A stretch of 64,000 nt of DNA from Escherichia coli (GTDB lineage Bacteria; Pseudomonadota; Gammaproteobacteria; Enterobacterales; Enterobacteriaceae): assembly GCF_001677475.2 (NCBI RefSeq), contig NZ_CP015229.1; one strand, written 5' to 3'. A program made the position numbers. Positions 26,801 to 29,800 of this stretch are shown one piece after another (the first letter of the stretch is position 1; each line of letters opens with the position of its first letter).

Positions 26801-29800
26801 AATGAACAATTTAAATCAGCATTCCTTAAACTCATTCAGCAAAACCACGAAGCAGTAAAATCCATTCAGGCTGAGCCGTATGGACACCTCACACCACCAA
26901 CTCTCGACATTATGTCCAGAATATTAACACCAGCCATGCTTCTACGTCTGAAAGACAATATAAATGACTGGTTAAACGAAGAATTAAACTACCTTGAATG
27001 TGAGTGGGATCATCATTACGCCAAATCACAAAAAGAACGCATCTTCCGTCGATTATCCGGCAACAGATAACGAGCCAGCTTATATACGTCCTTTAAGATA
27101 AGTCAGTCCTGGATGAAACCAGTAAGCCGGCACTTTTTTAAAGGGCGGATTATCAAAATCACGAAGAAGAGCCTCCCGCACAACTGCATCCTTGTCCGCA
27201 CCACTGGCCAGCGCTTCAATCTCAGCAGCTACCTGCAGATATCCCATGCAACGACCAATGCGCTTCATTAGTCCCTGCTTTTTATTGTTCTTCAGGTAAT
27301 CAATGGCAAATTCAATGAGCGCCTCACTGTGCTGGTGCGATGCTGGTGTTACTTTTCCATCTTCACGGATCGTGATATTCCAGTCATCGCTTGTCACAAT
27401 AAAAGATGGCCGATTATCCCCCCATTCCTGGTCTTTATCCGGTGCAGACGCAATAAAATAACGTTTATTGCCTTCCTCTCCGGCACTTTTAACTGTAATG
27501 GAGTACTTTTCTGACAATGCGGTCGGTAAAAACTTTTCCTGCAAAATCTTCGCAAAGGTCCTGCGAGCAATTTTGATGCAATCATCGTAAAACGCTGCTT
27601 CCTGCTCATCGCGGCGTTTTTTTTCATCTTCAGAAACCATCAGCACCGACAGTTTTTTATTCAGTTCAGTGATTTCATTTTCCAGGCAACTTATGCGCTG
27701 ATTCATTTCTTCATGGTTCATCGTCTACTCTCCCCGCGCCGCCTTACGCCGGTCTTCTTTAATTTTGAAATACAGGTTCGTCAGGTACGTCAGCAGACCA
27801 AACAGCAGACTCCCCAGCACGCCTATTGCCACCCACTGGGACGGAGAGACTTTGTCCAGCAGCTGCAGTAACCAGTATCCCGTCCCCACCGCTGACGTGG
27901 TGTATGACACACCTGTTGTGATTTTTTCCATCTGGTACATACCCCGTCTCCCGTTATCCGGAAGCTGACAACAATAAAAAAGCCACCCGTTAATTACTGA
28001 TGGCTCTGATGCATAAACGTCATCATTCCTGACCGTTATGATTGACAATGGTTATCATTTTTATATAAAAATACTCCCGATATGTGTTACATATCATTTC
28101 TCCACGGGGAATATCCCCACGCCAGCGTCAGACTCGTTTTCCCGTTCTCTTCTGTGCTGGCGTTTTTTTTATTATGATGTCGGTACATTTATCTCCAGCA
28201 CCAGGCTTTCAATCTCAACACCATACGCGGAATTTTTGGGCGTAAAAAATCCCCTCCGGTGAGGGGATTTGCTTATGTAAACATTTACACTGCTTACCTG
28301 CATGGTGCCGGGTGCCTCCCGGTGAATTCAGTATCAGCACCTGAATCCGCAATTATCCCATATACCTACTTGCTGATTGCCCCTCCGCACAGGGGGATTC
28401 ACCATGCGAGATTTTTTTAACAAATGCTCAGTCTGACAGGCAACTGTCAACTGACTGAATAGTGACACGGATTACACTTGTTACCCACATACCACGAATC
28501 AGGTTATTCTTCAGTCATTATTAAACTGCACTTCAGCAAATCCAGAGCCTGATTCACAGGTATTGGATTTGATTGTTACGGTCATTCCTGTTAACTGTGC
28601 ACTTTGTAACAACGGCTGCAAATTCCACCGGTTAGTCCAGTATTCTTTCCCGTCAACCTTTACAGTAAATGTGTTATCCCCATTATATTTGGAAAACTCA
28701 ATTTTACCTTTAGCACAATCCGCCGCCATTGCATTAACAGAAACCAATGCAAATAAAACCGCCATAAACATCTTCTTCATACTTAACTCCTTTCATTCAC
28801 CCGTTGTATATAATGACTGAGACTTTCTGTTCAGAAAGGCTGCTGCTGTATTACTTTCCCATAATGTATTGTTTATTTTTATAACTGGCCTGTCGCCACT
28901 TATCTGACATTTTGGTTGCATCTCTTCATTCACGTAGCGAACCGAACGCGCCCCCTGATGATGGCAATTCAGAATAACCGCTACAGTACCCAGTATTGCT
29001 GATATATTATTAAAGGATATTCTCCCCACTCTGACACCATCCTCTCCCCGATACTCCGGAAGCACATTGCTGATTCTCCCCCAGTTCAGAGTGAGGTCCA
29101 CGTCTTCCGGCGTCATCGTATAAACAGGAGCAGTTTCAGACAGTGCCAGACGAAATTCTCTCTGTATTTGCCTGAACCGTAAGGCTTCTGCTGTAACAGT
29201 GACAAAACGCAGAACTGCTCTGGATGCATCTCTGGTCATTGTATTACCACTGAACTCCATTAACGCCAGATATGATGAAACCAGTGAGTGACGACTGATT
29301 TGCATTCCGGAACGTTCCAGCGCTGCGACACGTTGCAGCGTGGTATAACTGCTGTCCGTTGTCATGGAAACAGTTGTCACACCGGGCACTGATATATGTG
29401 TAAAATCTGAAAAACGGTAGAAAGTATTTGTGGCCGTATTAACGAACCCGGCCACATATAAATTATTTTGCTCAATAATCAGACGAAGATGGTCAAAACG
29501 CGCCTCATAGATATCAAGCCCTCGGATATCCACAGAAATATAACTACCCGGTGGAGTATGATTAATAACAGATACCGATGTAGCCCCCTGAGATATATGC
29601 TCAAGAGGGGTCGATATTTCTGTCCGTATACTATTTAACGAAGATACATAAGTTTGTTGAGTCGAAAAGTCTATCGTAAATTCCCGGGAATAGGATACCG
29701 AAGAAAAGCCCAGTAACAGGCACAGTACCCATTTAAACAATATACACTTCATATACAGGTATTCCTTTTGGCTGAAGTAATCAGCACCAGACCCGGCGCA

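Follow-up and report, generated by a model that had tools for sequence, protein, structure and literature searches.

A predicted EcOnc32-type small RNA gene, paralogous to Esr41, between stx2B and the holin gene of an Stx2g prophage, and its proposed link to enterobactin synthesis

Introduction

Prophage-encoded small RNAs (sRNAs) are one route by which Shiga-toxin (Stx) phages rewire their host. The present work concerns a putative sRNA gene that lies between stx2B and the holin gene S in a 64,000-nt stretch of an Escherichia coli genome (contig NZ_CP015229.1); this whole stretch is referred to as the window, and its positions are used throughout. An initial annotation, made from the sequence alone, had pointed to a promoter-like element and a terminator on the strand opposite to the late genes, and had suggested that they might encode a small RNA antisense to the late transcript at the stx-to-lysis junction.

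RNA genes of this kind have been described in several prophages of pathogenic E. coli. The 'convergent sRNAs' of Tree et al. 2014 (PMC4104026) lie between a moron coding sequence (CDS) and the next phage open reading frame (ORF) downstream of PR', and one such pair, AsxR and EcOnc27, is found 3' of stx2B in prophage Sp5. AsxR is the only characterised RNA at an stx2 locus, and a different RNA occupies that region in the Stx2g lineage. The supplement of the same study places EcOnc32 at 901574-901662 (-) of the Sakai chromosome, within prophage Sp3 and converging on EcOnc13, and reports for it a Northern band of ~112 nt as well as a peak in 5/5 data sets obtained by Hfq crosslinking and analysis of cDNA (Hfq-CRAC). 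By area under the Hfq-CRAC curve, EcOnc32 (64.7 million) falls below AgvB1 (77.8 million) and above AsxR (40.5 million; Tree et al. 2014, PMC4104026). Thus, in enterohaemorrhagic E. coli (EHEC) the EcOnc32 family gives a stronger Hfq-CRAC signal than AsxR, yet it is unstudied; in the literature searched, EcOnc32, ECs_0817 and E2348C_1013 were found in supplementary tables only and not in main texts. In enteropathogenic E. coli (EPEC), the homologue sits under the annotated CDS E2348C_1013, opposite PasD1 (Pearl Mizrahi et al. 2021, PMC8550237). Transcripts assigned to E2348C_1013 are abundant (baseMean 2064), drop 7.5-fold in a delta-hfq strain (log2 fold change -2.9, padj 1e-23), and occupy the RNA2 (sRNA) position in 100% of their own chimeras in the ligation and sequencing of interacting RNAs (RIL-seq; PMC8550237). 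A more distant relative, Esr41, is a direct mRNA repressor with validated targets chuA, cirA and bfr, and it also affects the expression of fliC and of the locus of enterocyte effacement. Combining these published data with an analysis of the window, of prophages in complete E. coli genomes, from which the comparative evidence is drawn, and of a phage collection, we assess what the element beside stx2B encodes and what it might do.

A predicted small RNA gene of the EcOnc32 type

The element is probably best explained as a stand-alone sRNA gene of the EcOnc32 type, paralogous to Esr41, which occupies the slot between a remnant of nanS-p and holin S, converges with an STnc100/PasD-type gene, and encodes an RNA that would act on entC in the manner set out below. 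Judged by homology, it is a new copy, in a new stx2g context, of the known convergent prophage sRNA pairs and belongs to the EcOnc32/Esr41 family.

Over 150 nt that include the promoter, the unit is 88% identical to EcOnc32 of the O157 Sakai prophage Sp3, and over the RNA ~90% identical; the same figures hold for the loci in prophage PP4 of EPEC E2348/69 and in strain 86-24. A stretch of 44 nt (28084-28127) is identical in the window, Sp3 and PP4 copies, and the complement of the published EcOnc32 Northern probe, ATGTGTGTTACATATCATTTCTCCACGGGGAATAT (ATGTGTGTTACATATCATTTCTCCACGGGGAAT), agrees with 28082-28115 at 33/35 positions, the differences being one substitution and one gap. The position is also that of an EcOnc32-type sRNA, i.e. 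upstream of a class II holin gene, on the strand opposite to the late operon, and facing a PasD/STnc100-type sRNA gene with which it converges. The Rfam model of Esr41 (RF02676) is matched over its full length at 28081-28171 (+), with 34.1 bits and E = 6e-5 to 8e-4, which is short of the gathering score of 102. The Esr41 order of 5' hairpin, linker seed, GC hairpin and terminator recurs in the window RNA, and in place of the Esr41 seed AUUUUCUCCAUGGGG there stands AUUUCUCCACGGGG, one U shorter and with a U -> C change. By the Rfam threshold, the window RNA is thus taken to be a paralogue of Esr41 and not an Esr41 member.

The RNA from 28070 to 28175 is predicted to form three hairpins with a free energy of -32.6 kcal/mol (z = -6.97; 0/200 shuffles as stable), a fold that, according to the model, is far from chance. 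The terminal hairpin, consisting of 9 bp, a 1-nt bulge and then 4 bp, is followed by the eight T residues that had been noted ~110 nt beyond the promoter; the run begins ~95 nt after the -10 and ~120 nt after the -35 hexamer. When folded independently, all intact copies and Esr41 show the same succession of 5' hairpin, ~10-nt linker, GGGG/CCCC hairpin and terminator. The helix of hairpin 1 is preserved despite changes relative to Sp3 and Esr41, one pair appearing as A-U, G-U or G-C and another as U-A or C-G; these changes were compared one pair after another and by eye on the independent folds, in place of formal covariation statistics, since there are only about four distinct intact sequence types and a MAFFT alignment shifts the Esr41 seed by one base. 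Mapped onto the PP4 locus, the EPEC RIL-seq fragments of the homologue end at 1060613, the last base of the U-run.

The suggestion of a small RNA antisense to the late transcript is therefore supported by the ~90% identity to EcOnc32 and by the Hfq dependence of the EPEC homologue, with the understanding that 'antisense' describes its position and that transcription of this particular copy would follow by analogy. For the homologues there is published evidence of expression, of Hfq binding and of physical contact with entC, and the activity of the window copy may be presumed from them.

The statement that no ORF lies within the unit held in part only, for three short plus-strand ORFs, which start at 28082 (31 aa), 28084 (53 aa) and 28038 (74 aa), do overlap it; they are not conserved. 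Together with a 132-aa CDS annotated in Sakai and E2348/69, they raise the alternative that the unit is the start of a small protein gene, as implied by the RefSeq hypothetical protein that begins inside the unit at the homologous loci (ECs_0817, E2348C_1013). The ORF that is 132 aa long in Sakai and E2348/69 is frameshifted in 86-24, and in the window a 1-nt indel within the stem of the terminator shortens it to 53 aa; where the window and Sp3 copies have nucleotides in common, their ATG-initiated ORFs use different frames. Neither start is preceded by a Shine-Dalgarno sequence, no Pfam family reaches its curated cut-off for any of the three ORFs, and the long form runs antisense through PasD1, whereas the RIL-seq reads stop at the U-run and do not extend into the ORF. 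A coding gene was rejected on the grounds that neither the length nor the frame of the ORF is conserved between copies and that Pfam gave nothing above the curated cut-off, and we regard the chance that it is correct as close to negligible.

The annotation of the homologous loci deserves a comment in its own right. The CDSs ECs_0817 (locus L007, 1767-2165) and E2348C_1013, also E2348C_RS28255 (locus L003, 5055-5453), begin inside the EcOnc32-type sRNA and continue antisense through PasD/EcOnc13. This 'hypothetical protein', which is called across the homologous loci inspected, is in all likelihood mis-annotated, as its CDS covers an sRNA gene plus the antisense strand of PasD, and it masked the sRNA in the EPEC RIL-seq classification.

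Predicted pairing with entC and a proposed mechanism

By analogy with its homologues, the window RNA is most likely a trans-acting, Hfq-dependent repressor of enterobactin synthesis. In the EPEC RIL-seq data, the homologue has its most specific partner in the 5' untranslated region (5'UTR) of entC, with 263 chimeras, an odds ratio of 14 and p = 4e-165, and the homologue is in turn the only recorded partner of the entC 5'UTR; these chimeras were found in the condition in which ent is induced (entC baseMean 378 vs 17; PMC8550237). In EHEC, crosslinking, ligation and sequencing of hybrids (CLASH) on RNase E recovered an entC (ECs0632)-EcOnc32 hybrid with a false discovery rate of 5e-6 (Waters et al. 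2017, Table EV7), in which the entC initiation region is joined to ATATCATTTCTCCACGGGGAAT with the junction at the seed (Waters et al. 2017).

The window sequence lends itself to the same interaction. Positions 28084-28107 are predicted to pair with entC from -14 to +9 (UUGUGGAGGAUGAUAUGGAUACG), over the Shine-Dalgarno sequence and the AUG, at -25.4 kcal/mol, a value reached by 0/1000 target shuffles. The duplex is identical for the window and Sp3 copies, whereas the one predicted for Esr41 and entC amounts to only -13.5 kcal/mol. In CLASH, Esr41 employs the homologous seed UUUUCUCCAUGG on sites of the CAUGGAGA type, such as that in chuA (Waters et al. 2017); the U -> C change in the window seed matches GUGGAG in entC. 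The entC initiation region is at least 99% conserved in 5285/5426 E. coli genomes. The duplexes were computed on restricted regions with shuffle controls, as RNAduplex applied to the whole length returned long and physically meaningless pairings. The initiation region of rpoS is not put forward as a target; although it has the most EPEC chimeras (537), its odds ratio is 2.8, and the best duplex formed with the terminator loop was equalled in 340/1000 shuffles.

The RIL-seq and CLASH links, the strength of the duplex, the conservation of the entC site and the match created by the U -> C change together argue that the mechanism is most likely Hfq-assisted occlusion of the entC ribosome-binding site. 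In outline, a sigma-70 promoter (TTGACA, 16 nt, TATAAA) would drive an RNA of ~91-95 nt in the lysogen, independently of the phage antiterminator Q, and transcription would stop at the intrinsic terminator of the unit. The U-tail and hairpins would render the RNA Hfq-dependent and trans-acting, and the 3' half of hairpin 1, along with the single-stranded linker (CAUAUCAUUUCUCCAC), would pair with the Shine-Dalgarno sequence and start codon of entC, a core gene and the first in the entCEBAH operon. Such pairing would block translation and lower enterobactin synthesis, and a Fur-box-like palindrome over the promoter suggests that the RNA would be made when iron is scarce.

Promoter and possible control by Fur

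The near-consensus -35 hexamer TTGACA is present, one nucleotide to the left of the position first given (28043), and the TATAAA that had been placed ~15 nt downstream follows after a spacer of 16 nt; an alternative -10, TAAAAA (28066-28071), would have a spacer of 18 nt. As S is transcribed from the minus strand and the promoter is on the plus strand, it is indeed directed away from the holin gene. A stricter promoter scan passed over the TATAAA site because the -10 ends in A. In the alignment, all EcOnc32-type copies whose 5' end is intact have an invariant TTGACA, as do the promoters of Esr41, PasA and PasC. Alignment to the Esr41 promoter, whose RNA starts with GAUGCUC in the Rfam model, puts the predicted start of the sRNA at about 28076-28080.

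Laid over the -35 and the spacer is a Fur-box-like palindrome that agrees with the 7-1-7 consensus TGATAATnATTATCA at 12/14 positions and with the classic 19-mer GATAATGATAATCATTATC at 15/19. Loci at this level of match number three in the 64 kb, compared with 0.77 expected. The divergent Sp3-type promoter has a 15/19 Fur-box match of its own, while the Esr41 promoter has only 12/19. From these matches, the sRNA promoter may be controlled by Fur, such that the RNA would be made in iron scarcity. Elsewhere in the window, the best Fur-box-like match, GAAAATGATAATAATTATC at 23483-23507 (17/19, and a perfect 14/14 on the 7-1-7 consensus), lies between the gene for the small terminase subunit and a YlcI/YnfO-like ORF (23652-23864, +).

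Several observations weigh against the account given so far. The promoter match is at chance level by itself and cannot carry the argument; the 64 kb hold 1 site with at least 11/12 promoter matches (TTGACA-16-TATAAA) against 1.2 expected by chance. The final T that is conserved in -10 elements is missing, and it is in the spacer and -10 region that the window diverges most from the Northern-verified Sp3 copy. The EcOnc32 Northern band of ~112 nt exceeds the predicted 91-95 nt, so the true start is possibly upstream; a weaker promoter, CTGACC-18-TATCAT at 28029-28058, would yield about 105 nt, nearer to that band. The Fur-box call is consensus matching only. With regard to entC, the CLASH support amounts to 4 reads, and the level of entC mRNA does not change in an EPEC delta-hfq strain (log2 fold change 0.11), which means that any effect would be small or exerted on translation. 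The E2348C_1013 RNA was not classed as an sRNA by the EPEC authors, because half its partners are neither CDS nor 5'UTR (PMC8550237). Finally, other stx-linked copies, described next, are decaying, and from their sequences selection at stx loci is not assured.

Distribution of the unit and decay of some copies

The 151-nt unit occurs in 602/5426 complete E. coli genomes, mostly at 88% identity, and in 8/8 loci inspected, among them O157 strain 86-24, Sakai Sp3, EPEC E2348/69 PP4 and phage Evi, it stands upstream of the phage lysis (holin) genes or a remnant of them, the holin being of class II where intact. The joining of stx2B to this junction is much rarer, being seen in 9/5426 genomes (3 Stx2g, 6 Stx2a-type), and in the phage collection the unit was found in one sequenced phage only (Evi), with no sequenced Stx phage carrying it beside stx.

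The stx-linked copies are unequal in their state of preservation. The copy linked to stx2a in an O8:H28 strain has a seed change and a weakened terminator (z = -2.2), and Stx2i loci retain only a promoterless remnant (z = +0.5). Given this decay, the imperfect -10 and a neighbouring esterase gene that has been cut down to ~21 codons, it might be argued that the window copy too is an inactive relic, a decaying passenger of the nanS-p deletion that yields no functional RNA and whose hairpin is merely a leftover terminator. We consider this quite unlikely. The -35 is perfect and all three hairpins are in place, with a z score of about -6 to -7 that is as good as that of the verified Sp3 copy; the 44-nt block is identical to that of expressed homologues, whose U-runs are shorter than the one here; and the same 151 nt recur at 99-100% identity in other prophages.

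The convergent partner and the layout of the locus

The features of the locus are listed in Table 1. The late operon of the prophage is on the minus strand, and because loci 98-99.6% identical to it carry the Stx2g annotation, the window is assigned by sequence to an Stx2g prophage. The gap of 570 nt between stx2B and S contains, in addition to the plus-strand promoter/terminator unit, a second sRNA gene. The minus-strand terminator that had been remarked just after stx2B is real (28270-28244; a 10-bp G+C-rich stem and then a U-run), and the stretch ahead of it matches the full-length model (1-206) of the STnc100 family (RF02076) with 147.6 bits, where the gathering score is 47. In view of this match, the terminator is, by sequence, the 3' end of an STnc100-family sRNA. 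The two sRNA genes hence converge between stx2B and S, each having its own terminator, with the terminators 73 nt apart. To judge from sequence, the pair is the moron-site architecture already described for prophages, in which the antisense partner is Esr41-like instead of AsxR.

Table 1. Features of the stx2g-to-lysis region and of the predicted sRNA gene (window coordinates)
Feature	Position	Strand	Basis
stx2A	29752-28793	-	ORF call; Stx2g
stx2B, subtype Stx2g, upstream moron gene	28780-28511	-	ORF call; 99.6% identical loci annotated Stx2g A and B
STnc100-family sRNA (EcOnc27/PasD-type), convergent partner, follows stx2B	28238-28436	-	Rfam RF02076
nanS-p (SASA esterase) remnant, last ~21 codons	28172-28237	-	87-88% identity to esterase 3' ends, E2348/69 PP2 and PP5
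Predicted sRNA, about 91-95 nt, EcOnc32-type, Esr41 paralogue	28076-28170	+	Rfam, fold, homology
-35 hexamer TTGACA of sRNA promoter	28042-28047	+	sequence
-10 candidate TATAAA, 16-nt spacer	28064-28069	+	sequence
Fur-box-like palindrome over -35 and spacer (hypothesis)	28043-28062	.	consensus matching
5' hairpin, 7 bp, GUU loop	28079-28095	+	fold
Predicted seed region; core CAUAUCAUUUCUCCAC at 28090-28105	28084-28107	+	predicted duplex, 44-nt identity, CLASH chimera
Small G+C hairpin GGGGA-AUA-UCCCC	28106-28118	+	fold; in Esr41 kept as GGGG-UAUU-CCCU
Intrinsic terminator: hairpin 28119-28163 plus U8 28163-28170	28119-28170	+	fold
Second late-strand terminator-like hairpin plus U6, 36 nt upstream of holin start	27976-28004	-	fold; sequence
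Holin S, class II, downstream late gene	27940-27725	-	ORF call; near-identical loci annotated class II holin
ORF, 213 aa, between holin S and lysozyme gene	27721-27080	-
Lysozyme	26627-26094	-
Rz	25615-25148	-

The remnant of nanS-p, whose translation ends in NSAYGVEIESLVLEINVPTS before the stop where that of the comparison esterase ends in NAAYGVEIESLMLEINAPAA, has its stop codons adjoining the U-run of the plus-strand sRNA, and the unit therefore occupies the slot between nanS-p and S. The 1.85-kb esterase gene of most Stx2a phages is deleted between the STnc100 terminator and the nanS-p stub, and it is this deletion that, as read from the sequence, put the unit face to face with STnc100.

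Such a position invites the idea that the sRNA, or its transcription, acts in cis on the Q-dependent late transcript between stx2B and S and, by changing its processing or stability or by colliding with late transcription, tunes Stx2 release or the timing of lysis. The sRNA and the late transcript are perfectly complementary, its promoter is only ~100 nt upstream of the S start on the opposite strand, and the holin-adjacent slot holds antisense-oriented sRNA genes in many prophages (PasA, PasC, EcOnc32), which could mean that their function depends on position. However, the sRNA overlaps neither the holin start, including the S ribosome-binding site, nor any late coding sequence; the bodies found in this slot are unrelated (PasA/PasC vs the EcOnc32 type) and have in common only the promoter and terminator, which better fits a swappable cassette for trans regulators; and the homologues are abundant in uninduced lysogens and were captured with partners in trans. 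A cis-acting function is consequently unlikely as the explanation of the gene, though a cis role could accompany the role in trans to which the homologue data point.

A number of other features of the locus may be recorded. The hairpin upstream of the holin start has the sequence GCCAUCAGUAAUUAACGGGUGGC followed by U6, and with the STnc100 terminator it gives two late-strand terminators between stx2B and S; paired in this way, they may shield the lysis genes of the lysogen from moron promoters. A comparable hairpin precedes the holin gene in prophage PP2 of E2348/69 (locus L004, about 3120-3160). The equivalent of the 213-aa ORF (27080-27721, -), an insertion between holin S and the lysozyme gene, is marked as frameshifted in MFDS1022581 and is intact in GB089. 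Ahead of stx2A, a strong intrinsic terminator (29830-29811, -; 8-bp stem plus U-run) follows a tRNA gene (29846-29919); it is ~60 nt upstream of where stx2A starts and is overlapped by a weak STnc100-like match (19.8 bits). Further tRNA genes are located at 30024-30096 and 54964-55036. Lastly, Rfam matches above the gathering score lie side by side for C4 antisense RNA (38296-38383, -; 81.9 bits) and isrK (38408-38484, -; 53.4 bits), a pair resembling a c4/antirepressor immunity module of the P1/P7 type within the Stx2g prophage.

Implications

What would be genuinely new in this locus is only the proposed connection with entC and Fur. The proposal of entC repression and iron regulation draws on two independent interactomes, on an identical pairing region and on the Fur-box-like site at the promoter. 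Should it be right, the prophage would throttle enterobactin production by its host exactly in iron scarcity, something undescribed for EcOnc32 or for any phage sRNA. A broader and distinctly speculative idea, which we hold to be possible but on balance doubtful, is that the stx-holin junction is a swap site for riboregulators of iron homeostasis, with Stx2a phages carrying AsxR (acting via FnrS on chuS), and the Stx2g phage along with about 600 other prophages carrying a Fur-controlled Esr41 paralogue in which a one-base seed change, CUCCAU -> CUCCAC, would retarget the RNA from chuA, cirA and bfr to entC.

Comparison with known systems

The closest relative of the window RNA is EcOnc32. The two share the 44-nt block of seed and hairpin 2, the three-hairpin fold and a location directly upstream of a class II holin gene and antisense to the late operon, and the Sp3 copy is likewise convergent with an STnc100/PasD-type sRNA (EcOnc13). 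They differ in the upstream moron, which is stx2g here and a membrane-protein ORF plus a DUF3927 ORF in Sp3, in the promoter spacer and -10 (AATGGTTATCATTTTTATATAA vs AATAATGATAATGTTTATATAG), and in the terminator, the stem of the window copy having an extra bulged U and its U-run being 8 instead of 6 nt long.

With Esr41 (EcOnc14), encoded on the island SpLE1 of EHEC, the homology runs from promoter to terminator. The promoters are homologous (TTGACAA...ATTTTTA..TATA), and the elements follow in the same order, namely a 5' hairpin, a U/C-rich linker (UUUCUCCA), a GGGG/CCCC hairpin and a GCC(A/G)GC...GCUGGCG terminator; the pair changes in hairpin 1, which leave its helix intact, are in keeping with common descent. 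Both families are associated with Hfq and tied to iron-acquisition mRNAs at ribosome-binding sites, in the case of the window RNA through its homologues. Yet only about 41% of the alignment columns are identical, the C/U-rich terminator loop of the window RNA is 19 nt longer, the seed reads CUCCAU in Esr41 and CUCCAC in the window RNA, and Esr41 adjoins iha on SpLE1, outside any lambdoid late region.

PasA and PasC of EPEC E2348/69 (Pearl Mizrahi 2021; Zhu, Shabalina and Storz 2026) share this slot, which is bounded by the nanS-p stop codon and holin S, as well as the antisense orientation; they too have a TTGACAA -35 and a terminator with its flank, GCCAGCG...CGCUGGC-U7-AUUAUG, and both are Hfq-dependent. 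Their bodies and seeds are unrelated to those of the window RNA, and PasA has been described as arising from a longer transcript by processing. The window unit and the PasA/PasC loci (L004, L005) gave no alignment in sensitive blastn (word size 7, E 1e-3). Downstream of PasA in PP2 of E2348/69 (L004, 2760-2880, -) there is a second, tandem promoter-plus-terminator unit, TTGACAG...GCCAGCG..CGCUGGC-U7-AUUAUG. This tandem unit accounts for the 236-nt 'minor' PasA species; cassettes can duplicate in the holin-proximal slot.

AsxR (EcOnc02) and AgvB (EcOnc01) resemble the window unit as short RNA genes that are antisense to the late operon, downstream of a moron and convergent with an STnc100-type sRNA. 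AsxR is located 282 bp 3' of stx2AB in Sp5, and it has an iron link via the haem oxygenase gene chuS. Since AsxR lies 3' of stx2B and both functionally tested antisense members of moron-site pairs are sponges (AsxR for FnrS, AgvB for GcvB), one might suppose that the window RNA mainly titrates a core sRNA. This is, in our view, very unlikely. The conserved ~42-nt 3' domain of AsxR/AgvB, GUAUCUCAUGC..UUGCCCGAACCCAYUCGGGC, was found nowhere in the window with up to 3 mismatches allowed, and the Rfam models of AsxR and AgvB (RF02703/RF02702) gave no hit at E up to 10 in 27950-28250; the identity with AsxR/AgvB that the Sp5 precedent would lead one to expect was rejected on these grounds. In addition, among the RIL-seq partners of the homologue, the four that were read are leaders of mRNAs or intergenic regions, with no sRNA among them, and the relative Esr41 is a validated direct repressor of mRNAs. 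AsxR and AgvB thus stand apart as sponges of 51-60 nt, unrelated in sequence to the RNA of ~93 nt predicted here, and they are encoded upstream of nanS-p, whereas the window unit is downstream of it and beside S.

Our preferred reading, a trans-acting repressor of entC, finally calls for comparison with RyhB, the core Fur-repressed, iron-sparing sRNA. The likeness is one of functional analogy only, the window RNA being, like RyhB, presumably Hfq-dependent, possibly Fur-controlled and directed at mRNAs of iron homeostasis. There is no homology between the two, and RyhB supports siderophore production and activates cirA, whereas the window RNA is predicted to be a repressor of entC.

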